A model generated the notes under the pieces. That model did no database searches, was not told the DNA's origin, and was given only the letters and a program-made list of their open reading frames with translations. From Candidatus Hodarchaeota archaeon (GTDB lineage Archaea > Asgardarchaeota > Heimdallarchaeia > Hodarchaeales > Hodarchaeaceae): a DNA stretch of 20,985 nt. The stretch is from contig JAEOTC010000074.1 of assembly GCA_016840035.1 (NCBI GenBank), positions 1 through 20,985 of the forward strand, given 5' to 3'. This document shows positions 5,599 to 20,985 of this stretch, in pieces; positions within the stretch are counted from its first letter, which is position 1, and each line of letters begins with the position of its first letter. A program made the position numbers and the translations under genes.

Positions 5599-6537
5599 AT
5601 GGACGAAATTTATGTTATTCTCTTGCTTCTTCCCATCATTATGATTTTAATTATTTCTATTCTCATTAGGGCTCAGTATAAGCGAGCTTTAAACCGAAAT
5701 CTTCAATTTCTCGATAATCTCCATTCAAAAACCTTTCAATCCACCTACGGAGAAGTAGAATATCTCTTAGAAGGAATAGGACCTACAATTCTTGTTTCTC
5801 ATGGGATTACAGGCGGGATTGATCAAGGAATAGGATTGATGAAAAGTTATTTGGGTTCTAGCTATCGATTTCTCTATATTTCACGCTTTGGGTATTTAAA
5901 ATCTTCAATTCCGGAAAATGCCACCGTTGAACTACAAGCCGATGTGTATAATGAGCTTTTAGAGCATCTAGGAATTTCTTCCACCTTTGTCTTAGGAAAT
6001 TCGGCAGGAGGCACCTCTGTAATTCAATTTGCCCTTCGATATCCGAAAATGTGCCAAGGCTTAATCTTACTCTCAACCAATGCCCCTCTTGACATTGATC
6101 TAGGACATCCCCCAAAATTCGTCTTTCGTTTTGATTTTCTTTACTGGTTTTTCATGAAGATGACTGGCCGATTTTTGCTATCCATGTTTGTACCAAAGGA
6201 AATTTTGAGGACATTATCAATAAAGAGAAGGAAAGAAATAATGGATGAAATCTATTTCTCTGGGTTACCAATCAGTAAGCGATCAGAAGGTATTTTCTTT
6301 GATATGTTTATTTCTAATCCATCTATTAACACTGATGTTCCATTTGAAAATATTAAATCTCCCACTTTGATCATTAATACCGTAGATGATCCCGCTACGC
6401 GTATTGAAGGAGCAAGAACGCTTGCAAAAAGAATTAAAACAAGCTCCATTGTTGTATTAGAATCAGGTGGGCATTTACTCTTAGGTCAAGAAGAAAAAGT
6501 AAGAAAAGAAATTGAGGTTTTTATCAGTAATAATTGA
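5599..6537 (+). CDS. Alpha/beta-fold hydrolase with N-terminal membrane anchor
   Basis: HGITGG oxyanion region, GNSAGG nucleophile elbow, DDP acid, GGHLL catalytic His; hydrophobic N-terminus; AAGGAG RBS at 5584-5589. Confidence 0.9.
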   Translation: MDEIYVILLLLPIIMILIISILIRAQYKRALNRNLQFLDNLHSKTFQSTYGEVEYLLEGIGPTILVSHGITGGIDQGIGLMKSYLGSSYRFLYISRFGYLKSSIPENATVELQADVYNELLEHLGISSTFVLGNSAGGTSVIQFALRYPKMCQGLILLSTNAPLDIDLGHPPKFVFRFDFLYWFFMKMTGRFLLSMFVPKEILRTLSIKRRKEIMDEIYFSGLPISKRSEGIFFDMFISNPSINTDVPFENIKSPTLIINTVDDPATRIEGARTLAKRIKTSSIVVLESGGHLLLGQEEKVRKEIEVFISNN

Positions 6538-7261: not shown

Positions 7262-8677
7262 TTGAGGTTCTTTGAAATAGTTCTGATATTTATTCTTGTC
7301 ATTTTTTCTACGAAGTTTCTTTGGTCGGCGAAATTGGATCATAGTCTGAAAATAATCTTAAGTGCGAGTATTAGTAGTGTAGCATTTATTGATTTTATGT
7401 TACATTATCTGATTGAAGGAATTCGTTGGCAATTGACAATTATCTATATCCCTTTAGTCTTCTTCATCATTTATGAAGTGTATACGATAATCAAACATTA
7501 CAAACAAGAAAATTCCGAAGTTGAGTCAGTTAAATCCAAATTGAGACTTGGTATTTCGGTGTCTGGACTAGTAATAATATTTTTATTGATAGTATCTACT
7601 TTATTCCTCAATTCACTCTTTCCTGTATTCAAACTACCCAATCCAACAGGTTCCTATTCAATTGGAACTACTTCTTTTGATCTAAATAATATCAATCAAG
7701 AAGAAACCTTCACACCTGAACCTTCAGATACACGTCGTTTTATGATAAGAGTATGGTATCCAGCCGATCAAGTTTCTAATAAAAGACCTGTCCCATATGT
7801 TCTCTCTCCTGGTGCATTTGGGGAGGGAATAGAACGGTCTTTCGGGTTTCCATCATTTGTTGTTAGTCATTTCCCCTTGACTTTTACCCATTCTTATAGA
7901 GATGTTCCACTGTCTAATAACCATTCCAATTATCCAATTTTAATATTCTCTCATGGGTATGGTGGATTAGATTTTCAAAATACTGTCCTCTTGGAGGAAT
8001 TAGCTAGTCAAGGATTTATTGTTTTTAGTATAAATCATGCGTATGAGTCTACAGTGTCTGTATTTCCCGATAAAACTGTAATATACGAATCTGAAAAAGA
8101 TGAATCGCATAATATTAGTTCCAGTTTGTCCATCTGGGCTAATGATACGGTTTTCTTGATTGACCAACTAGAAATCACAAATAATGATCTAATTCCCAAT
8201 ATATTCTGGGGAAAGTTGGATTTGTCTAAAATTGGATTGTTAGGCCATTCATTCGGGGGCACAACTAGTGAGGAAGTGAGTTTGCTTGATGATAGAATAA
8301 CATGTGGGATCAGTCTAGATAGTCCTCACATGGGCCATTCCTTATCTATGAATTTAACGAAACCTTTTATGCTCATGTTTGGGACAGATTACGGCAATCA
8401 GGAACTAAATGATAGTGTTTTCTTGAATGCGGAAAATAAAACATTTGGACTGTACGTTGAAGGCGCTTATCATTATAATTTTGCTGATGCAAATATTTGG
8501 GCACCATTTTTACAAACCATTGGTTATATCGGACCAATCGATGGATATAGAATGCTTGAGATAGTCAATCAGTATGTCACCGCCTTCTTTAACAAGTTTA
8601 TCAACAATATTGACTCAATATATTTGGATGGTGCTTCATCAGACTATCCAGAAGTTGCGTTTTACTCTCGAAATTAG
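7262..8677 (+). CDS. Membrane-anchored alpha/beta hydrolase, PAF-acetylhydrolase/dienelactone-hydrolase-like lipase/esterase
   Basis: About 4 N-terminal TMs; LPNPTGSYSIGT, RRFMIRVWYPA, YPILIFSHGYGG, EELASQGFIV, GHSFGG nucleophile, ISLD acid, HYNFAD His. TTG start with AGGTG RBS at 7251-7255. Confidence 0.9.
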   Translation: MRFFEIVLIFILVIFSTKFLWSAKLDHSLKIILSASISSVAFIDFMLHYLIEGIRWQLTIIYIPLVFFIIYEVYTIIKHYKQENSEVESVKSKLRLGISVSGLVIIFLLIVSTLFLNSLFPVFKLPNPTGSYSIGTTSFDLNNINQEETFTPEPSDTRRFMIRVWYPADQVSNKRPVPYVLSPGAFGEGIERSFGFPSFVVSHFPLTFTHSYRDVPLSNNHSNYPILIFSHGYGGLDFQNTVLLEELASQGFIVFSINHAYESTVSVFPDKTVIYESEKDESHNISSSLSIWANDTVFLIDQLEITNNDLIPNIFWGKLDLSKIGLLGHSFGGTTSEEVSLLDDRITCGISLDSPHMGHSLSMNLTKPFMLMFGTDYGNQELNDSVFLNAENKTFGLYVEGAYHYNFADANIWAPFLQTIGYIGPIDGYRMLEIVNQYVTAFFNKFINNIDSIYLDGASSDYPEVAFYSRN

Positions 8678-10927: not shown

Positions 10928-11818
10928 ATGAATAAAAATGATTTACGAGCATGGATTGTAATAATTGTCATTCTTTTCATAGCTATCTTTCTTGCATTTG
11001 CGGGTAGTCAGGGAGGGGCATATTTTCTTGATTTCATTCCTCTATTTGCACTTGGGATTGGCCTAATTTTTGTAATACAGTGGATTGCTTTTATTCCAGC
11101 CTATATTTATCGTACAGAGAAGTTTTTTGACTTAATTGGTTCACTAACTTATTGTTCGGTAATAATTTTGTTGGGTTTTTTTTCACCAAATTTGGATCTT
11201 CGCTCCTTTGTCATTATAGTTTTGGTTTTAATTTGGGCTATCCGCTTAGGGACTTTTCTATTCAGAAGAGTATTGAAAGCAGGGGAAGATGAACGATTTA
11301 GGGATATTAAACAATCTGGCTCACGTTTTTTAGTTACTTGGACAATTCAAGGATTATGGGTTAGTTTTACACTAGCAGCTGCCATGGCGGTTCTTACAGT
11401 GGATTACCGCGAGAAATTCGGAATCATTGGGATTATTGGATTAGTAATTTGGATTATTGGGTTCATGTTTGAAGCAATCGCAGATTATCAGAAGAATCAA
11501 TTCAGATCTTTACCAGAGAATAAAGGGAAGTTTATACAAACTGGATTATGGTCGATTTCTCGTCATCCAAATTATTTCGGAGAAATTGTGCTTTGGATTG
11601 GGATAGCAATTATTGCCCTCCCTACATTATCTGGATGGAATTTAATAACGCTTATATCCCCAATATTTGTAACACTTCTATTAACAAAAGTAAGTGGCGT
11701 ACCATTACTTGAGAAACGTGCTGATGCAAAATGGGGAGATCAAGAAGATTACATCGCTTACAAGGGCAATACTCCTGTGCTAGTTCCAAAAATAAGATTT
11801 GGGAAGAAGACAAAATAG
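10928..11818 (+). CDS. DUF1295 family membrane protein (steroid 5-alpha-reductase/ICMT-like superfamily)
   Basis: EKFFDLIGS, WAIRLGTFLFRR...EDERF, W.IQGLWV, EAIADYQK, GKFIQTGLWSISRHPNYFGE, SGVPLLE motifs. Confidence 0.92.
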   Translation: MNKNDLRAWIVIIVILFIAIFLAFAGSQGGAYFLDFIPLFALGIGLIFVIQWIAFIPAYIYRTEKFFDLIGSLTYCSVIILLGFFSPNLDLRSFVIIVLVLIWAIRLGTFLFRRVLKAGEDERFRDIKQSGSRFLVTWTIQGLWVSFTLAAAMAVLTVDYREKFGIIGIIGLVIWIIGFMFEAIADYQKNQFRSLPENKGKFIQTGLWSISRHPNYFGEIVLWIGIAIIALPTLSGWNLITLISPIFVTLLLTKVSGVPLLEKRADAKWGDQEDYIAYKGNTPVLVPKIRFGKKTK

Positions 11819-11864: not shown

Positions 11865-12506
11865 TTATTTGGAACTATCTGGTTTTCTCGCAAATATCCA
11901 ATACTGTGATTCCCCACCCCTGATGCGTACACCGTCTGTGATCAAATCAAATCCTACAGCTTTCACCAACTTAGCTGTCACTTCTGGTTGATGAGAACTC
12001 CAAAACATTGGTACATCAAAGAATTGTGAGAAAACTTCAGAATCAAAAACACCCGTGTTCAGTAGGAGAATACCGTTCGGTTTCAGGATTCTGTGAAAAT
12101 TCTCCAATACGAATTTATGGTTAACTCGTGGAATATGAAAAAGTACATAAACACAAACTAATCCGTCAAAAGAATTTTTCTCGAATTCTAGCTTATTAAT
12201 ATTCATCTTTCTGAAAATAGCTGTGGGTACGTTTCTCTTTGCTAGTTCAAGCATTGTATCTGATATATCAATACCAGTCACTTGGAAATTGTGCTCAACA
12301 AGGAATTTTGCAACAGGAACTCCAGCACCAGACCCAACATCCAAAACTTCCCCAAATCTTGGTAGAAGACTTTTCAACTCATGAAGCTCACGATCCATTT
12401 TTCTTACATTGCGATTGGCGGCATAGATTTCGCCAATCTTATTCCAGCTCTGTCTGACAGTTTCTGTGACTGATTTTGTAGAAGATCCTTCCTCTCTATG
12501 CTCCAT
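11865..12506 (-). CDS. Class I SAM-dependent methyltransferase
   Basis: Motif I VLDVGSGAG, post-I VTGIDIS, SFDGLVC, LFHIP, ILKPNGILL. Confidence 0.92.
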   Translation of the reverse strand: MEHREEGSSTKSVTETVRQSWNKIGEIYAANRNVRKMDRELHELKSLLPRFGEVLDVGSGAGVPVAKFLVEHNFQVTGIDISDTMLELAKRNVPTAIFRKMNINKLEFEKNSFDGLVCVYVLFHIPRVNHKFVLENFHRILKPNGILLLNTGVFDSEVFSQFFDVPMFWSSHQPEVTAKLVKAVGFDLITDGVRIRGGESQYWIFARKPDSSK

Positions 12507-12832: not shown

Positions 12833-13558
12833 ATGATTAAGAAACCAAAAAATTCTTTGGAAGTGAGAATTATAAGCAATGTTATTGAAGTACAAGATTT
12901 AAAGAAGGTTTATTCATTAGGGCAAGTGAAAGTAAATGCTTTATCCGGAATAAATATGAAAGTGCCTTCTGGTGACTTTGTAGCAATTTTAGGCCCTTCT
13001 GGCTCAGGTAAAACGACATTATTACATTCATTAGGCGCTTTAGATAAACCCACTTCTGGAAGTGTGTTAATTTTTGGTTCTGATCTTGCTTTATTAAATG
13101 ACAGTCAGCTTACTGAGTTTAGAAGGAAAATTGGATTTGTTTTTCAATTTTTCAATTTAATTCCCCGGTTAACTGCATTAGAAAATGTAGAATTGCCTTT
13201 ATCAATTGTAAGGGTTCCTAAAAAGGTTCGTAGAAAGAGAGCTATTAAGCTCTTAGAAACTGTTGGATTAGGAGATCGAATTCACCACAATCCTTTGGAA
13301 CTTAGCGGAGGAGAACGTCAAAGAGTGGCTTTGGCACGTGCGCTTGCAAATAAGCCTGATTTCTTATTAATGGACGAACCAACAGGAAATATTGACTCTA
13401 AGACGGCTTCTGAGCTGCTTGAGATAATAACTACCCTCAACCGAGAAAATCTTGTAACTACCATCATGGTAACTCATGATCATGAGATTGCAAAGTATGC
13501 AAAGCGAATTCTGCATTTTAAAGATGGCTTAATACTGAAAGAGGAGGTAAATTCCTAG
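12833..13558 (+). CDS. ABC transporter ATP-binding protein, LolD/MacB/SalX family
   Basis: Walker A GPSGSGKT, IGFVFQFFNLIP, signature LSGGERQRVA, Walker B LLMDEPTGN, VTHD switch. Confidence 0.96.
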   Translation: MIKKPKNSLEVRIISNVIEVQDLKKVYSLGQVKVNALSGINMKVPSGDFVAILGPSGSGKTTLLHSLGALDKPTSGSVLIFGSDLALLNDSQLTEFRRKIGFVFQFFNLIPRLTALENVELPLSIVRVPKKVRRKRAIKLLETVGLGDRIHHNPLELSGGERQRVALARALANKPDFLLMDEPTGNIDSKTASELLEIITTLNRENLVTTIMVTHDHEIAKYAKRILHFKDGLILKEEVNS

Positions 13559-14826
13559 TGTTTCTTAGTGATATTATCTCATATGCAATTGGCTCTATTC
13601 AAAGAAGGAAAGTACGTAAAGGTTTAGCTTTACTTGGTGTAACAATAGGTATCGCAGCTATCATTTCTTTAGGATCATTGAGTCAAGGATTTCGTGGAAT
13701 TGTTGCTATGCAATTTGAGCAAGGATTCTCTTCTGACACTATCATTTTGACAACTGGGAGTCTTGATTTCCTAAATACTGAATCTGATTTCGAATTATAC
13801 GTAAATGACACAGAATTAATTGATCAAATCGATAACGTGAGCCTTTCTGTTGCGCTTATTCAAAAAAATTGTTTCGTTCATCTTGGAGACGAGGAATTAT
13901 TATTACCTGTGATAGGAGTAGATTTTTCAAGGTACAAAGAGCTTTTTCCAAATACTTTCCTCACTCAATCAGGATCTATTAGTGATTTTCCTACTAATAA
14001 TACAGTCATTCTGGGAAAAAGAGTTATTGATCCATGGAACAATGGCACCTTACTTGGTACGATTTCTGATGAAATCAATATCACTTTTACAACCAGGGAT
14101 GGGTTTAATGTAGAAAATAAGACGTATACTGGTAATATTGAAGGAATTTTAGATGAGATTGGTGGATCTACAATAGGAGGGCCTACAGATATGGGTATTT
14201 ATATTCCTATTAGTCACGCAATCAAATTCTTTGATACCACCCGTTGTGAAACAATCCTAGTTAAGCTAGTAGAAAGTAATGAACAAACAATTAAAAGTAC
14301 GTCCGATTCCATAGAAGATCTTTTTGCGGGACAAGTTCAAGTTGTAACACCCACTTCAATAATCAATGCAATTTCGGAAATTGTAACTACTATCGAACTC
14401 TTTCTGATTGGAGTTTCTGCAATTTCTTTAGTTGTTGCGGGTGTAGGGATTATGAATATTATGCTTACTTCGATTATGGAAAGAACCCGTGAAATAGGTA
14501 TATTAAAATCGATTGGGATGAAAAAAGAGGTCGTTATTCTAATTTTTCTAAGTGAAGCGCTAATCATTGGGATTCTTGGATCAATATTCGGAATAATTGT
14601 TGGTGGATTTTTAGCAATTGCAGTGGATGAATTTGGTTTACTAACAGGTTTAGCAAGCGGTACTAAAGAGACTTTTATCGGAGAAGTATCAATTTCTCCC
14701 ATATTCAACTCAGGATTACTAATAGGATCTGTAATATTTGGTTTGATCGTAAGCATAATTTTTGGATTATACCCAGCATGGCGAGCTGCCAAATTAGATC
14801 CTGTCGAGGCATTAAGATATGAATAA
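13558..14826 (+). CDS. ABC transporter permease, MacB/FtsX (type VII) family
   Basis: TM1 LLGVTIGIAAII, large extracytoplasmic domain, ISLVVAGVGIMNIMLTSIMERTREIGILKSIG, GLYPAWRAAKLDPVEALRYE. TAGTG stop/start overlap; GAGGAGGT RBS at 13541-13548. Confidence 0.95.
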   Translation: MFLSDIISYAIGSIQRRKVRKGLALLGVTIGIAAIISLGSLSQGFRGIVAMQFEQGFSSDTIILTTGSLDFLNTESDFELYVNDTELIDQIDNVSLSVALIQKNCFVHLGDEELLLPVIGVDFSRYKELFPNTFLTQSGSISDFPTNNTVILGKRVIDPWNNGTLLGTISDEINITFTTRDGFNVENKTYTGNIEGILDEIGGSTIGGPTDMGIYIPISHAIKFFDTTRCETILVKLVESNEQTIKSTSDSIEDLFAGQVQVVTPTSIINAISEIVTTIELFLIGVSAISLVVAGVGIMNIMLTSIMERTREIGILKSIGMKKEVVILIFLSEALIIGILGSIFGIIVGGFLAIAVDEFGLLTGLASGTKETFIGEVSISPIFNSGLLIGSVIFGLIVSIIFGLYPAWRAAKLDPVEALRYE

Positions 14827-14839
14827 AGGAGTTTTCTGA

Positions 14840-17140
14840 ATGGGAAAGTATATTCAGCATTTGAATAGCAAACACAAGGATATAGATGTTGGAAATAAAG
14901 CTAAAAATCTTGCATTCCTTTCTAAAAACCGATATACTATTCCGAAGACCTATATATGTGGATTCAAGGCTTTTCGTGATTTTAGGGATGATAAAAATGT
15001 ATTATCTCAAATTAAAAGAGAATTAAACACAATTATTGATGAAAATACATCTTATTCAATCCGATCATCTGCAAGTGTTGAAGATACTTCAGATTTCTCT
15101 TATGCAGGACAATTTGAAACTTATTTAAACATAAAAGGTGTTGATTCAATTTTAGCCTCAATTGTCAAGATATGGGACTCAATTTCGGGTAAGCAGGCAA
15201 TTGCGTATGGAGAAGAGACCGGTCAATCTGAAGTAGAAATGGGAGTGATAATTCAAGAGATGGCTTGTCCACTTTTCTCTGGTGTTGTATTTACTCGAAA
15301 TCCCATAAACGGTCTCAATGAAATAATTATTGAATCAGTTGACGGTTTTGGTACACAACTAGTTCAGGAAGGTATCACACCTGAGAGGTGGAAATATAAG
15401 TGGGAAAGCTGGACTGAGAAGCCTTCAAACGAAACAAAAAAGTTTGAGGTTATTAGAAACGTAGTCCAGGAAGCCATAAATATTGAGAAAGAGTATGGAA
15501 AACCTGTTGACTTAGAATGGGTTTTTGATGGAAAAGATATTTATTGGCTGCAATTACGCGAGATTACTACTCTCAATAGTACAAATATTTATTCTAATCG
15601 TATTTCAAGAGAATTTTTGCCTGGAATTATTAAACCTCTTGTTTGGTCAATCAATATCCCAGTTGTTAATAGTTCATGGAAACAGTTATTCAAAGAGTTA
15701 TTGGGTAGAAAAGCTGAGTCGATTAATATTAATAATCTAGCAAATCAATTCTATTTTCGCGCCTACTTCAATATGGGAGTAGTTGGTGATATATTTGAAC
15801 TCCTTGGTATGCCAAGAGATGCGTTGGAAATTTTAGCAGGTATTGAGTTTTCAAATGAAAATAGGTCGTTATTTCGACCAGGTCCCCAAACTATCCAATT
15901 TCTTCCAAATATATTACGCTTTATTATGCAAAAAGCTATGTTTGAAAAGAATATTGAGAAATTTCAAAGAGATTTTCAATTAAAGTATAAACAGGTTAAG
16001 AAAGCACTCATAGAAGATCTCAACGAGGAAGAGACGTTAGGAATAATAGAAAAGCTCATTGATCTGAACTCCACGGCATCTTATTATGTTATCATGGCCC
16101 AATTGCTTAATAGCCTCTTTAGTATGGTTTTAAAAACTCGTCTCAAAAAAGAAAATATTTCAATTGAGGAATTTCCAGAGAATCAACCCCTTCTGGAATT
16201 TGTTGATCCAAGATTTCATCTAGCTAAATTAAATAAACTTTACAAGAAGCAATCAGATTCCGAAAACCTATTTAAAGAAGAAAATATCGATCCTGAATTC
16301 TTAAGAGAGCTTAGATTATTTAAGCAAAGATTTGGCCATTTGAGTGATAGTGGTAACGATTTTACAACTCCTTCATGGAATGAACAACCTGAGTTAATTA
16401 TTGAGATGATAAAGGCAACAGAACAAGGTTTAAAACCTAGTTCTATATCATTAAATCATGATTTACTTAAAAAGAAGGGAAATTTAATATTTTTTTATAA
16501 AAAAGCTGCTCGTTATCGATTATATCGTGAAACAGTGACTTTTCTGTATACTTATGGTTATCGATTATTTCGTCCTGCTTTCTTACATCTAGGATCCTTA
16601 TTAAGTAAAAAGAATCTTCTCAACGATTCTGATGATATTTTTTATCTTAAATATCCTGATATCAAAAAAATAATATCTGATCCTAGTGTGGCCTCTAAAT
16701 TACGAAAAAGAGTTAGAACTACAAAAGAAGAGATAAAAAAGTATGGGAACGTTCGATTACCTGAAGTTATTTTTGAAGAATTGCCTAAAGCAATGTTAAT
16801 GTCGTTAGATGTAAAAGAAGAACTTTATGGAGTGCCTACTTCAAAAGGTTATCATGTTGGCCCTGTAAAGGTAATAAAAGGAGTATCAGACTTTAAAAAA
16901 GTTACCAAAGGTGATATAATTATTATTCCTTTTTCAGATATTAGTTGGACGCCCTTGTTTGCCAAAGCTAGTGCTGTGATCTCCGAATCTGGCGGTATAC
17001 TATCTCATTGTTCTATAGTTGCTAGGGAGTATAGGATTCCTGCTATTGTTTCAGTAAATAATATTATGACAACATTAAGAGATAATATGAGAATTGCAGT
17101 AGATGGATTCAATGGAAAAATTCAAATCATACGAGATTGA
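14840..17140 (+). CDS. PEP-utilizer family ATP-dependent dikinase/phosphotransferase with RPH/PigC architecture (ATP-grasp, central substrate domain, C-terminal phospho-His swivel)
   Basis: VGNKAKNL, IRSSASVED...SYAGQFET, VIIQEM, SGVVFTRNP, DLEW, WLQLREIT; C-terminal GGILSHCSIVAREYRIPAIV (His723, codon 17006-17008). No PEP/pyruvate TIM barrel follows the His domain. AGGAG RBS at 14827-14831. Confidence 0.92.
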   Translation: MGKYIQHLNSKHKDIDVGNKAKNLAFLSKNRYTIPKTYICGFKAFRDFRDDKNVLSQIKRELNTIIDENTSYSIRSSASVEDTSDFSYAGQFETYLNIKGVDSILASIVKIWDSISGKQAIAYGEETGQSEVEMGVIIQEMACPLFSGVVFTRNPINGLNEIIIESVDGFGTQLVQEGITPERWKYKWESWTEKPSNETKKFEVIRNVVQEAINIEKEYGKPVDLEWVFDGKDIYWLQLREITTLNSTNIYSNRISREFLPGIIKPLVWSINIPVVNSSWKQLFKELLGRKAESININNLANQFYFRAYFNMGVVGDIFELLGMPRDALEILAGIEFSNENRSLFRPGPQTIQFLPNILRFIMQKAMFEKNIEKFQRDFQLKYKQVKKALIEDLNEEETLGIIEKLIDLNSTASYYVIMAQLLNSLFSMVLKTRLKKENISIEEFPENQPLLEFVDPRFHLAKLNKLYKKQSDSENLFKEENIDPEFLRELRLFKQRFGHLSDSGNDFTTPSWNEQPELIIEMIKATEQGLKPSSISLNHDLLKKKGNLIFFYKKAARYRLYRETVTFLYTYGYRLFRPAFLHLGSLLSKKNLLNDSDDIFYLKYPDIKKIISDPSVASKLRKRVRTTKEEIKKYGNVRLPEVIFEELPKAMLMSLDVKEELYGVPTSKGYHVGPVKVIKGVSDFKKVTKGDIIIIPFSDISWTPLFAKASAVISESGGILSHCSIVAREYRIPAIVSVNNIMTTLRDNMRIAVDGFNGKIQIIRD

Positions 17141-17150
17141 GTTTTAGTTT

Positions 17151-17930
17151 ATGAATTTATTAGAAGTATTAATTATAGGAATTATCGGATATCTCTTTGG
17201 ATCAATATCTTTTGCACGTCTCATAACGAAACTACTTGCTTCAGAGGACTCTATTGACAATTTATTTCTGGATATGGAAGATCAGGATCTTTCACAACTT
17301 ATGACTGGTTTTGGAGCCAATCGTGCAGCAATGGTTCTTGGTGCCAAATGGGGAATTGCAATCGGTCTTTTAGACATGCTAAAAGTCGTAATTCCTATGA
17401 TATTTGTAGGTTTCTTATTTTTAGATGAGAGTTATTTCTTGATTGTGTCCATTACAGGCCTAATTGGCCACAATTGGCCTCTTTATTATCGTTTTAAGGG
17501 AGGCAGAGGTTTTTCAGTAATTTATGGTAGCTTTTTTGCCATAGATTGGATTGGAGCTATCATAACTGTTATTCTTGGTTTACTATTTGGAATGGGTATT
17601 TTTGGAACCGTGATGATTGGTTATGTTGGATGGTTATGGCTAATGATTCCCTGGTTCCTCCTGAGAACCAATGATTCTGCATTTTTAATTTATGCCATTT
17701 TAATCAATATCATCTTCATTATAGGGACGATTCCTGAAATTCGTTTAGGAATGAGATTGAGAAAAGCCGGTAAATTTGCGGAATACCAAGAGAAACTGTT
17801 TCAATCTTCACCTAGATGGAGAGGCATGAAGAAAATGAATGATAGGATCCAATCGCCAATAGTACGCGGGTTTTTGGTCCTAATTGGTTTAATTCTCCTT
17901 TTCCCTGTATATTTTTTCATCCTTGTATAG
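17151..17930 (+). CDS. plsY: PlsY-like (DUF205) glycerol-3-phosphate acyltransferase family protein, divergent, copy 1
   Basis: GYLFGSI, LDMLK, GHNWPLYYRFKGGRG (PlsY motif 2). Motifs 1 and 3 are non-canonical. Starts 10 nt after the dikinase stop. Confidence 0.8.
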   Translation: MNLLEVLIIGIIGYLFGSISFARLITKLLASEDSIDNLFLDMEDQDLSQLMTGFGANRAAMVLGAKWGIAIGLLDMLKVVIPMIFVGFLFLDESYFLIVSITGLIGHNWPLYYRFKGGRGFSVIYGSFFAIDWIGAIITVILGLLFGMGIFGTVMIGYVGWLWLMIPWFLLRTNDSAFLIYAILINIIFIIGTIPEIRLGMRLRKAGKFAEYQEKLFQSSPRWRGMKKMNDRIQSPIVRGFLVLIGLILLFPVYFFILV

Positions 17931-19391
17931 ACTTAAGCCTTCAACCGTTTTCTTATAGTAATTATGAAAACAATCAGCAAATTAATTATTGTTACAACCA
18001 CAATTATTGGGATAATAATTTGAAGAACATCTAAATCATAAGTTGGGACGATGATATTGGTCACAGCAATACTTTCTGAACCAATATATTTGTAGAATAA
18101 TACTGAAGTGAAATGACCAAATATTCGTACTGAAAAAGTAGTAGTAATTGCCATATAAGCTTGGATTCCAGTTTCGGTGAAATAGCACTGGGTTTGATTT
18201 ATTTTTATACCAGTAAGATATAAACTCATACTCGACGGAACTCTGGGTTTTAGAATGATTGTCGAGGTCAATGTTTTATTTGTAAGTTCATATTCAACTA
18301 ATTCGACTTTTTTATCACAGATATATTCTTTAGATGCTAAGGTATCTAAAACTTGAATCCAGAGATCCCAATCTCTTGAGATAATGGGTTCTCCCAATTT
18401 ATTGCCGATTGTAAGTTGATATTCTGTCATATTATAAGAAACATTGATTCTGCCTGTATTTGTGTCATTTGGGAATGAAACAATCCTTATTGTGAAATTA
18501 GAGTTACGAGGGGGAATTGTATCAAAAATAGGTTGGAGTGTGAAGTTATCTATGCGAACTTGAGTCAAATTCGCGATATCTTCCATATCCATTCCTCCTG
18601 GTAACTCCATTCCCTGAGTAAAATCGGGTCTTTCTGGTCTTTGAACAACTCCGAATTCTAGATCCTGTCCTTCTTCCACACCATAGGATTGTAATGTGGC
18701 ATTACTGGTCTTGATTAGACTAATATTGAATGTAAGTACAAAAATTAAAATGAATTTAGTCTTAATCTGAACTTTTTTCAAGCTTAGCCCACACAGGAAA
18801 GAATGGATTATTTACATATTGATTCTTAATTTAATTATCTTTAAATTTTTACTATCATTTGAAGATTATGTAATACTTCAATTTCTATGATTCAGGCTAT
18901 TCAAAAGAAAGAGAAGGGAGCATTGCAAGAATGAGGAAGAAAGTAACAAAGCTAAAAACACCAATTATAATTCTAATTCGTCCTAAGCTGAGAATATAAT
19001 CTTCTATTGCTTTCATTCCCCTCCATCTTGGAGTAGATGTAAGTAAGGACTTCCTATAGTCTTCATATTTTCCTTCCCTTCGCATTTTCATATCTTCCTG
19101 TATTTCTGGAATAGCTGAAATAAGAAAGATTACGTTTGAAAGAACAGCATACAAGAAATAGAGTAGATCATTAGTTCTTAGGAGGAACCAGGGAATCATT
19201 AGGAAATAACCCAATGGATAAGCAATCATTATATCCCCCAGAAGGAAAATTCCAATTAAGAATCCAAAAACATTGGTAGTGATTGCTCCGAAAAAATCTA
19301 TTACGAAATAGCTCCCAATAATTACTGAAAGACCTCTACCTCCCTTAAAACGATAATAAAGGGGCCAATTATGGCCAATTAGGCCTGTGAT
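17451..19391. repeat. Inverted near-identical DNA patches shared by the two PlsY-like genes
   Basis: 17451-17522 vs reverse complement of 19320-19391: 67/72 identical. 17640-17675 vs reverse complement of 19167-19202: 34/36 identical. Each contains a 23-nt exact match. Confidence 0.85.
17933..18781 (-). CDS. Hypothetical exported protein with signal peptide and C-terminal TM anchor
   Basis: MKKVQIKTKFILIFVLTF leader; mature part begins ..SYGVEEGQ; several N-x-S/T sequons; C-terminal IIIPIIVVVTIINLLIVFIITIRKRLKA. No family recognised. Confidence 0.75.
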   Translation of the reverse strand: MKKVQIKTKFILIFVLTFNISLIKTSNATLQSYGVEEGQDLEFGVVQRPERPDFTQGMELPGGMDMEDIANLTQVRIDNFTLQPIFDTIPPRNSNFTIRIVSFPNDTNTGRINVSYNMTEYQLTIGNKLGEPIISRDWDLWIQVLDTLASKEYICDKKVELVEYELTNKTLTSTIILKPRVPSSMSLYLTGIKINQTQCYFTETGIQAYMAITTTFSVRIFGHFTSVLFYKYIGSESIAVTNIIVPTYDLDVLQIIIPIIVVVTIINLLIVFIITIRKRLKA

Positions 19392-19703
19392 TGCAATTAT
19401 TAAATGATATTCTTCTTGAGGATATAAAATACCTTTGAATATAATCATGGGTAGAATTACTTTAAGCATATCGAGAAATCCAATAAATAGTCCCCATCTT
19501 ACACCTAGAACAACAGAAACACGATCTCCTCCATATCCTGTTAGAATTGTACCTTTTTGTTCCTGATTATTGATTTGCATTGTATATTTCAAGTCTTCCA
19601 GAGATTTTTCTGATGCAATCAACCTACTTATTAAACGAGAGGAAGATATGGAACCTATTAAGTAACCAATAATTCCAGCAAGACCAGAAATCATTATCTC
19701 CAT
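18897..19703 (-). CDS. plsY: PlsY-like (DUF205) glycerol-3-phosphate acyltransferase family protein, divergent, copy 2
   Basis: GYLIGSI, LDMLK, GHNWPLYYRFKGGRG; colinear with 17151..17930 (shared LMIPWFLLRTND, IPEI, PRWRGMK). Confidence 0.8.
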   Translation of the reverse strand: MEIMISGLAGIIGYLIGSISSSRLISRLIASEKSLEDLKYTMQINNQEQKGTILTGYGGDRVSVVLGVRWGLFIGFLDMLKVILPMIIFKGILYPQEEYHLIIAITGLIGHNWPLYYRFKGGRGLSVIIGSYFVIDFFGAITTNVFGFLIGIFLLGDIMIAYPLGYFLMIPWFLLRTNDLLYFLYAVLSNVIFLISAIPEIQEDMKMRREGKYEDYRKSLLTSTPRWRGMKAIEDYILSLGRIRIIIGVFSFVTFFLILAMLPSLSFE

Positions 19704-20465: not shown

Positions 20466-20985
20466 ATGATAGATATATTGATATTCTCATTTTTGATGTT
20501 ATTACTTTTTTTTAGCGCCTTCTACTTAATCGCTTTGAAACAAGGTATCTACAATACAGTCGATATCGCCTATGGTACCTCCTTTATTATCATTGCAGTC
20601 TACTCAATAATCATGAGTGATAACGGTTTAACATTAAGGAAATTATTAATTACCGCCCTCTTAGTATTTTGGGGAATTCGTATTGCTTATTTTCTAACCA
20701 TAAGAAAATATGGAAAAGATCCAATAACAAATGAAGATAAACGGTTCAAAATCATGCGGGATAGATGGGGAAAGAGCAGTCTTTGGAAGGGGTTCTTCTT
20801 CCTTTATCTTACACAAGTATTTCTTGTTCTTATAGTCTCCTTACCAGTTTTAGTTGTTAATTATTTTAGTGGTTCTCAAGAGTCTACAGCTCTCGAAATA
20901 GTAGTCTTGATATTAATTTTCATCGCGATTTTAGGGGAAACTTTGAGTGATTTTCAGCTCTACCAATTTAAGAAAAAGTCAACGA
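20466..20985 (+). CDS. DUF1295 family membrane protein (partial, runs off the window end)
   Basis: Not in the ORF track. Manual translation from ATG 20466: MIDILIFSF...NTVDIAYG...LVFWGIRIAYFLTIRKYGK...EDKRFKIMRDRWG...YLTQ...SLPV...GETLSDFQLYQFKK; open to the window end. Starts 21 nt after the upstream stop. Confidence 0.88.
   Translation, partial: MIDILIFSFLMLLLFFSAFYLIALKQGIYNTVDIAYGTSFIIIAVYSIIMSDNGLTLRKLLITALLVFWGIRIAYFLTIRKYGKDPITNEDKRFKIMRDRWGKSSLWKGFFFLYLTQVFLVLIVSLPVLVVNYFSGSQESTALEIVVLILIFIAILGETLSDFQLYQFKKKST

Follow-up and report, generated by a model that had tools for sequence, protein, structure and literature searches.

The window analysed here is the whole of a 20,985-bp contig (JAEOTC010000074.1) from a Candidatus Hodarchaeota archaeon, the genome of which (assembly GCA_016840035.1) measures 4.3 Mb and is 87% complete. 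It carries two genes, copy 1 and copy 2, for membrane proteins related to PlsY, the bacterial glycerol 3-phosphate (G3P) acyltransferase, together with genes for a dikinase and for an ATP-binding cassette (ABC) transporter. The module is arranged as two convergent units, one on each strand. In the + strand unit, ATPase, permease, dikinase and copy 1 follow one another with intergenic gaps of -1, 13 and 10 nucleotides (nt). Its features, by position in the window, are as follows:

12833..13558, + strand: LolD/MacB-type ABC ATPase (Pfam and NCBIfam matches)
13558..14826, + strand: MacB/LolC-type ABC permease (MacB_PCD and FtsX; Pfam)
14840..17140, + strand: Rph/PigC-type His-swivel dikinase, 766 aa (PF01326 and PF00391 only)
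17151..17930, + strand: PlsY-like copy 1, 259 aa, S-type clade (PF02660, 69.1 bits)
17933..18781, - strand: predicted surface protein, 282 aa, downstream of copy 2
18897..19703, - strand: PlsY-like copy 2, 268 aa, S-type clade (PF02660, 51.7 bits), an old paralog of copy 1
13090..19647, unstranded: 6,558-bp segment with the greater part of the module, precisely absent from congener L204 (G019)

The label S-type is coined here for the clade to which copies 1 and 2 belong. Both are intact open reading frames (ORFs), they share 55% identity, and they are the sole PF02660 genes of the source genome. Both pass the PF02660 gathering cut-off of 24.1 bits with the scores listed above, and both fail the 137.2-bit cut-off of TIGR00023, the PlsY equivalog model, at 59.9 bits (copy 1) and 44.7 bits (copy 2). 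An AlphaFold2 model of copy 1, built from a 96-sequence alignment (pLDDT 91.8, pTM 0.88), has seven core helices followed by short helices at residues 194-205, 209-219 and 221-233 and a last helix at 236-258. When this model was compared with the PDB using Foldseek, the only matches at E≤0.001 were the Aquifex PlsY structures 5xj5-5xj8 (E ~1e-5, TM score 0.78 on the target). At the nucleotide level, the cores of the two genes form inverted repeats (17294-17675 versus 19167-19550) of 70% identity.

The roles of individual PlsY residues have been defined with liganded structures of the Aquifex enzyme and ~60 mutants (Li et al. 2017, PMC5700162). The phosphate of the acyl-phosphate donor occupies a “phosphate hole” composed of the backbone amides of residues 104-107, His92 and two helix dipoles, and the acyl carbonyl is bound by Ala40 and Thr41 (PMC5700162). 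G3P is held in a clamp of Ser35, Arg45, Lys104 and Asn180, with Ser142 and His177 as ligands of its 2-hydroxyl (PMC5700162). An earlier reading of the window made from the sequence only had taken the motif-3 histidine to be the catalytic base, a view that is outdated: His177, conserved at 91%, contacts the 2-hydroxyl of G3P and lies 5.4 Å from the 1-hydroxyl, the H177A mutant retains 6.5% activity, and catalysis is substrate-assisted with no need of a protein base (PMC5700162). The roles of the motifs run opposite to the older view, in that motifs 1 and 3 form mostly the G3P site and motif 2 mostly the donor site, so an intact motif 2 amounts to an intact donor site.

The relevant motifs of the two copies are located as follows:

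17304..17324, + strand: TGFGANR, motif-1 remnant of copy 1, residues 52-58 (same mapping by MAFFT and HHalign)
17466..17510, + strand: GHNWP through FKGGRG of copy 1, the predicted retained acyl-phosphate half-site
Residues 106-110, + strand: GHNWP of copy 1, with His107 equivalent to His92
17493..17510, + strand: FKGGRG of copy 1, residues 115-120, phosphate-hole loop with Lys104 replaced by Arg
17730..17741, + strand: IPEI of copy 1, residues 194-197, in place of motif 3 (HxxN)
17805..17834, + strand: SSPRWRGMKK of copy 1, residues 219-228
17805..17924, + strand: basic cytoplasmic extension and eighth helix of copy 1 (last helix 236-258)
19011..19040, - strand: TSTPRWRGMK of copy 2, followed by a terminal hydrophobic helix
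19101..19112, - strand: IPEI of copy 2
19332..19349, - strand: FKGGRG of copy 2
19521..19541, - strand: TGYGGDR, motif-1 remnant of copy 2

The active-site changes proposed in the sequence-only reading are thus present in both copies: motif 1 (canonically GSGNxGATNxxR) is replaced by TGFGANR or TGYGGDR, motif 2 is kept apart from the change of GGKG to GGRG, and IPEI stands where HxxNIxRL would be expected. Copy 1 does contain exactly one histidine in total, and copy 2 contains two. The proposal of a conserved C-terminal extension stood in part. Both copies have S[ST]PRWRGMK plus a terminal helix, and a basic tail (xRGxxK) is found clade-wide, with Arg224 in 76 and Lys or Arg at position 228 in 83 of the 96 aligned sequences. 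The eighth helix, on the other hand, occurs in only 13 of the 96, exclusively in the archaeal branch.

Residues of the Aquifex enzyme were mapped onto the copies with MAFFT and HHalign (probability 99.8-99.9), which agree through helix 7. The outcome, as Aquifex residue, copy 1 and copy 2, is:

Ser35: Met in copy 1, Leu in copy 2
Asn37: Gly in both
Ala40: Ala in copy 1, Gly in copy 2
Thr41: Asn in copy 1, Asp in copy 2
Asn42: Arg in both
Arg45: Met in copy 1, Val in copy 2
His92: kept in both
Gly102, Gly103 and Gly105: kept in both
Lys104: Arg in both
Asn180: Glu in both (column uncertain by 2-3 residues, with no Asn nearby)

In addition, the Ser142 column is occupied by Tyr according to HHalign. 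For motif 3, MAFFT and an ungapped continuation of helix 7 place Thr193 at His177 and Glu196 at Asn180, so that Glu196 most likely occupies the Asn180 position. Under either alignment, the motif-3 spot lacks His and Asn and has a conserved Pro-Glu pair instead.

These features are no chance pattern and extend well beyond the window. Across the 96-sequence alignment, the donor residues are strongly conserved (His107 in 95 sequences, Gly117, Gly118 and Gly120 in all 96, Arg119 in 79, Ala56 in 87), as is the replacement of motif 3 (Pro195 in 82; Glu196 in 86, plus 6 with Asp). Further conserved residues are Arg23 (93), Asp75 and Lys78 (96 each), Asp132 (88) and Trp168 (94), and 11 columns are invariant over these sequences from two domains of life. 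Among 78 aligned clade members, none has Arg at the Arg45 position, the equivalents of His177 and Asn180 are gone, and the Asn180 column is Glu or Asp in 74. Clade-wide, then, the Ser35 position is variable, the Arg45 position hydrophobic, Lys104 replaced by Arg and His177 by Thr or Met, and the Thr41 position is Thr or Ser in 59 of 96 sequences and Asn in 35. Such substitutions were not seen among canonical enzymes, ten of which were compared and have all of the clamp residues. As judged by alignment, the pattern is one of a donor half largely kept and a G3P half replaced, because the corresponding Aquifex mutants N180D, H177E and R45A retain just 3.3%, 1.1% and 1.1% activity, respectively, against 25% for K104R (PMC5700162).

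A sequence search returned 492 relatives of the S-type proteins, with names from Hermod-, Loki-, Thor- and Promethearchaeota and from Anaerolineae. Among species-representative genomes, a scan returned 495, in which the archaeal members belong to Thor- and Bathyarchaeota and the bacterial ones to Chloroflexota (many), Aminicenantes, KSB1, Calditrichota, Acidobacteriota, Actinomycetota, Ignavibacteriota and Spirochaetota. Cultured species with the module include Ornatilinea apprima and Anaerolinea thermophila, the latter represented here by a metagenome-assembled genome. A profile search of 1.84 billion representative sequences gave 173 clusters (50% identity) at E≤1e-30 and 12,389 PF02660-like proteins at E≤1e-3.

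Phylogenetic analysis alongside canonical and further PF02660 proteins placed all 78 S-type members sampled in a single clade (SH-like approximate likelihood ratio support, SH-aLRT, of 100; stem length 0.84). The archaeal sequences are nested within an Anaerolineae group (support 96), which suggests transfer from bacterium to archaeon, although this direction is one that we infer from a midpoint-rooted tree; Anaerolineae-like bacteria are the apparent source of the S-type gene. In the tree, the two copies are paired with separate orthologs (P0005 and P0006), and their duplication is therefore old. The pair in the window is unfit for estimating selection, since its synonymous divergence (dS) is saturated at 1.68; closer S-type pairs with unsaturated dS gave dN/dS ratios of 0.11-0.20. 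These ratios show no relaxation of selection and, with monophyly and the ~173 clusters, bear out the earlier suggestion of a selected subfamily rather than of decay. One S-type gene does look decaying: the Bathyarchaeota copy L112 (G014:C2:8564-8974) has three in-frame stops (one TGA, two TAA), and the adjoining dikinase match is fragmented.

For comparison with canonical PlsY, PF02660 paralogs were sought in 11 bacterial genomes that hold an S-type gene. In nine of these, an additional PF02660 gene scores 113-191 bits, versus 55-86 bits for the S-type gene. Six of the nine additional genes are of the canonical PlsY type (156-191 bits), and those of three Chloroflexota genomes are other PF02660 variants (113-127 bits). 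No second gene was found in the Acidobacteriota genome, and that of Aminicenantes gave no more than a fragment of 71 aa where a contig ends. Judging from these scores, the bacterial S-type protein is a paralog of canonical PlsY rather than its ortholog. The Thor- and Bathyarchaeota genomes, by comparison, have S-type genes as their only PF02660 genes and lack canonical PlsY. Anaerolineae genomes (L083-L085, L088, L089 and L091) encode still more PF02660 variants beside canonical-looking genes, for instance one with SGRTGGTN … GGAG … LRPNIKRI (Lys104 to Ala, His177 to Leu) and one with GDGNPGATN … GGKA … KHxxEL. By its motifs, PF02660 contains several uncharacterised active-site variants.

The most consistent partner of S-type genes is the dikinase. 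In the window, this protein ends 10 nt upstream of copy 1 and is composed of an ATP-grasp domain, a middle domain and a swivel domain (PF01326, 142 bits; PF00391, 69 bits) in which the swivel His722 sits in a GGILSH motif; no barrel family of the phosphoenolpyruvate (PEP)/pyruvate kind was matched in it by Pfam. Its best solved relative is the rifampin phosphotransferase of Listeria (5fbs/5hv1), and it falls under the equivalog cut-offs for Rph (206 of 999 bits), PigC (175 of 1300) and PEP synthase (186 of 740). Synteny was assessed by tblastn with the window dikinase in 74 genome loci and 46 metagenome contigs of at least 4 kb. The gene immediately next to the S-type gene encodes a homolog in 68 of the 74 loci and 44 of the 46 contigs, in the orders dikinase then PlsY-like; PlsY-like, dikinase, ATPase, permease; or PlsY-like, ATPase, permease, dikinase. 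In the six remaining loci (L077-L082), tblastn found no dikinase homolog; these loci match the N-terminal half of the query only, and most are canonical PlsY loci.

Natural fusions point the same way. Forty of the 119 closest dikinase homologs are ~1000-aa proteins in which a PF02660 domain precedes the dikinase, encoded by Lokiarchaeota, Bathyarchaeia and Dehalococcoidales; the fusion proteins are P0149 and P0175-P0221, and in P0221, for example, the PlsY-like domain spans residues 13-207 and the dikinase residues 292-1003. Such a domain order suits the seven-helix, N-out/C-in topology of canonical PlsY, with the dikinase facing the cytoplasm. The fused membrane domains form a separate clade (support 100), labelled F-type here, which lacks Arg45, His177 and Asn180 like the S-type and keeps Ser or Thr at 35, Asn37 and Asn42. 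No F-type PlsY-like domain was found in the S-type loci. Fusion in this sister clade strongly supports a functional partnership of this dikinase family with PlsY-fold proteins, and the association that the sequence-only reading had raised between the PlsY-like proteins and the dikinase is upheld by both adjacency and fusion. In a contig labelled Flavobacteriaceae (L005:534-3581, +), the module is nearly identical to one from Bathyarchaeota (L004), and the contig is probably misbinned; an in-frame read-through there from dikinase to S-type gene was given no weight, being a single case with an implausible topology.

The module is dispensable within the genus. In the congener L204 (G019:C104), positions 1-1350 align to window positions 20762-19648 and then directly to 13089-12851, with syntenic flanks of 75-80% nt identity. 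Of the genes at the two ends of the segment, the ATPase is reduced to a stub of 257 nt and copy 2 to one of 56 nt, the junction falling within the ATPase gene on one side and the first 19 codons of copy 2 on the other; the inverted-repeat cores of the two copies are not the end points. The congener, then, lost an ancestral module by clean deletion. The same flank synteny shows that the contig is truly of this genus, and misbinning was rejected on that ground. No S-type gene was found in the 25 relatives searched, 15 of them from the same genus. Among 20 congeners, 11 have no PF02660 gene at all, including one with a single-contig, 96%-complete genome, and the other nine hold a third, unlinked PF02660 type. 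The deletion and the absence in relatives make this an accessory module, one that cannot be the source of bulk membrane lipid in the genus. The third type (GTGQLGASNAGR … WHGGKGG) lacks motif 3 and is found in L207-L212, for example at L207:1447-2163 (-), with no dikinase within the 1.5-kb flank.

The source genome offers no evident supply of acyl-phosphate of the familiar kind, as neither PlsX (PF02504) nor DegV/FakB (PF02645) was matched in the 87%-complete assembly. Geranylgeranylglyceryl phosphate synthase (GGGPS) of the PcrB type was likewise not found there, and three PlsC-type acyltransferases are present.

Taken together, copies 1 and 2 are probably not the bacterial-type phospholipid enzyme of their annotation. 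The reading given most weight here, at about even chances, is that they are acyl(phosphate) transferases fed by the dikinase and directed at an acceptor other than G3P. The dikinase would spend ATP (to AMP and inorganic phosphate, Pi) to load the swivel His722 and would then phosphorylate a carboxylate close to or at the membrane, the simplest candidate being a free fatty acid. An acyl-phosphate would thus be made without PlsX, Fak, acyl carrier protein (ACP) or coenzyme A (CoA). The S-type protein would bind this donor in its retained phosphate hole and move the acyl group to the non-G3P acceptor with release of Pi, and the co-transcribed MacB-type ABC transporter would handle the hydrophobic product. 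Docking, or binding of the acceptor, is a candidate role for the basic cytoplasmic tail, which, like the dikinase linkage, is specific to the clade. In this scheme we infer what the dikinase acts on, that acyl transfer continues, what kind of acceptor is used and what the transporter does.

A different acceptor, which the sequence-only reading had listed among its possibilities, appears to be the most economical explanation for the lost G3P clamp. Since the clamp Asn gives way to an acidic residue and Arg45 is gone, a phosphate-bearing head group is disfavoured at that site; both changes would suit a cationic or amine group, though this is speculation. The fullest version of the proposal, in which a CoA- and ACP-free membrane machine uses acyl-phosphate made through phosphohistidine to acylate a new (possibly amine or cationic) acceptor and so yields a lipid class exported by the MacB-type transporter, is more tentative and, in our estimation, falls short of an even chance.

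Several points weigh against acyl transfer fed by the dikinase. The confident part of the HHalign alignment ends at residue 189, and its low-confidence tail is displaced by 2-3 residues from MAFFT over motif 3. In copies 1 and 2, the hydroxyl of Thr41, a ligand of the acyl carbonyl, is lost. The F-type domains have lost His92, Thr41 and Lys104, and the loss of His92 and Lys104 may mean that acyl-phosphate-hole chemistry is not securely shared by the two clades. Where the reaction of a dikinase of this family is known, the phosphate goes to a hydroxyl or carbonyl oxygen (as in rifampin and a prodigiosin precursor), and none is known to make an acyl-phosphate. Nor do we know of MacB-type transporters that move substrates from the cytoplasmic leaflet.

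Two other explanations are unlikely but not negligible. In the first, the S-type protein would still acylate G3P or glycerol 1-phosphate (G1P) by means of a clamp rebuilt from Arg23, Arg119 and Arg224, the dikinase would replace PlsX or Fak, and the product would be Asgard ester lipids. The donor site is largely intact, basic residues for such a clamp are at hand (Arg23 in 93, Arg119 in 79 and Arg224 in 76 of 96 sequences), and the archaeal S-type genomes lack a canonical PlsY, with three PlsC-type acyltransferases in the source genome. K104R retains 25% activity in the Aquifex enzyme (PMC5700162), and bacterial PlsY accepts both stereoisomers of glycerol phosphate (PMC13400652). All four clamp positions are altered together, however, with an acidic residue at or next to Asn180; in the Aquifex enzyme, N180D leaves 3.3% and H177E 1.1% of activity. 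Moreover, a second PF02660 gene with a higher score persists in most S-type bacteria, and about half of those examined have one of canonical type. Bulk membrane lipid cannot be what the module makes in this genus, given that the search of 25 relatives found no S-type gene, that one congener deleted it and that 11 of 20 congeners lack PF02660 altogether. Linkage to an exporter, too, is unlike a housekeeping plsY.

In the second, which we consider similarly improbable, the module would be a kinase for membrane substrates: the PlsY-like protein would hold a lipid, a hydrophobic alcohol or a xenobiotic (an antibiotic, for example) in its phosphate hole, the swivel His would phosphorylate it and the MacB pump would expel it, the outcome being detoxification or lipid phosphorylation. 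Among characterised enzymes, those closest to the dikinase phosphorylate small hydrophobic molecules (rifampin phosphotransferase, for example), and MacB-type pumps export antibiotics. The module is also accessory and patchy, the fusion sets the swivel domain beside the membrane domain, and the F-type losses of His92, Lys104 and Thr41 speak against a conserved acyl-phosphate chemistry. Nevertheless, the dikinase has a middle, substrate-type domain of its own, as Rph does, and its score of 206 bits is far under the Rph cut-off of 999. The S-type protein largely conserves the very residues with which PlsY binds acyl-phosphate, and no conserved regulator or resistance-type context was seen in the loci.

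The remaining idea, that a bacterial plsY was transferred and that the copies are its decaying or catalytically inactive remnants, finds some favour in the dispensability of the module, deleted in a congener, and in the stop codons of L112, and is close to refuted by the two intact ORFs, dN/dS of 0.11-0.20 in the clade, 11 invariant columns in 96 sequences, a confident structural model and conserved gene partners.

Among known systems, S-type proteins resemble PlsY (PF02660, TIGR00023; Aquifex aeolicus 5XJ5-5XJ9) in the seven-helix fold and cytoplasm-facing site and keep His92, the GGxG loop, Ala40 and the LDxxK motif of helix 2. They differ in lacking Ser35, Arg45, Asn180 and His177, in the change of Lys104 to Arg, in the Pro-Glu at motif 3, in an insertion of ~12-25 residues before motif 1, in a basic extension at the C terminus, to which some archaea add an eighth helix, and in having a dikinase and an ABC exporter, not PlsX, as genetic partners. 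The proposed role of the dikinase, to supply acyl-phosphate to a PlsY-fold enzyme, is like that of PlsX or FakA/FakB. PlsX uses acyl-ACP to acylate phosphate, and FakA belongs to the Dak-type kinases; the dikinase is unrelated to them in fold and chemistry, with an ATP-grasp domain and swivel His and the release of AMP and Pi. Its domain order (ATP-grasp, middle, His swivel; barrel-free) is that of Rph (5FBS/5HV1) and PigC/RedH. PigC activates a carbonyl by phosphorylation for condensation, and we know of no pairing or fusion of Rph or PigC/RedH with a PlsY-fold membrane protein. The fused PlsY-like-dikinase proteins have a PlsY-fold membrane domain and a dikinase 42-49% identical to that of the window; they differ from the S-type in forming a separate clade and in having the membrane domain covalently N-terminal to the dikinase. 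No description of them was found in the literature. Likewise, the literature searched, of which coverage was incomplete, yielded no module that combines PlsY with a dikinase, PEP synthase or phosphohistidine.

Asgard PlsY has repeatedly been cited as a sign of possible bacterial-type ester phospholipids in the closest archaeal relatives of eukaryotes (PMC6431249, PMC6737245, PMC13400652). A recent review states that its function “remains to be elucidated” and that, of the PlsX/PlsY pair, only PlsY is present (PMC9385802). The literature handles the protein either as orthologous to the bacterial enzyme or as a homolog with no assigned function. The S-type protein, in short, is an accessory paralog that appears to have lost its G3P-binding half and travels with an ATP-driven dikinase and an exporter. 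If the module does acylate a new acceptor without CoA or ACP, this would explain the Asgard “PlsY without PlsX” and would remove S-type genes from the evidence for bacterial-type phospholipids in Asgard archaea. The module hints that acyl-phosphate might be made by a new route and that a new lipid might result, and with four genes to work on, the question of Asgard PlsY becomes experimentally concrete.

The transporter genes accompany S-type genes less regularly than the dikinase. A MacB-type permease homolog was found in 48 of 74 genome loci and 25 of 46 metagenome contigs, and an ABC ATPase homolog in 32 of 74 and 20 of 46; many of these contigs end early. By Pfam, the pair in the window is a MacB_PCD plus FtsX permease with a LolD/MacB-type ATPase, which is the make-up of the type VII ABC transporters MacB and LolCDE. 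Unlike these, the pair falls under equivalog cut-offs (the ATPase scores 246.5 bits against 307.75 for LolD), and this version occurs in archaea and Chloroflexota. LolA-like and HlyD-type partners, as well as genes for a PGAP1-like hydrolase and a ferrochelatase/CbiX-like protein, join the module in some bacterial loci. The last of these, a protein of 405 aa (41.7 bits), adjoins the module in 18 of 74 loci, all bacterial, as at L009:13107-14321 (+). Hydrolases of PGAP1-like or PETase-like type are repeated neighbours of bacterial modules. In the window, two alpha/beta hydrolases are encoded upstream at 5599-6537 (+) and 7262-8677 (+), one of them like a platelet-activating factor acetylhydrolase or a lipase.

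The 282-aa protein at 17933-18781 is predicted from its sequence to have an N-terminal hydrophobic segment, many NxS/T sites and a C-terminal anchor, and it has no Pfam or NCBIfam match. It was rejected as a conserved part of the module, with zero homologs in any related locus, and DNA homologous to its gene sits elsewhere in congeners. Two paralogs of DUF1295 (membrane proteins like steroid reductases or isoprenylcysteine carboxyl methyltransferase, ICMT) bracket the module at 10928-11818 (+) and 20466-20984 (+), and a class I S-adenosylmethionine-dependent methyltransferase gene lies between the first of these and the ABC genes at 11865-12506 (-). Congeners retain DUF1295 and part of the methyltransferase, and DUF1295 is near the module in just one of 46 metagenome contigs. 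Finally, positions 1-127 of the window are 100% identical to G000:C153:60029-60155 of the same assembly, probably an assembly overlap one k-mer long.

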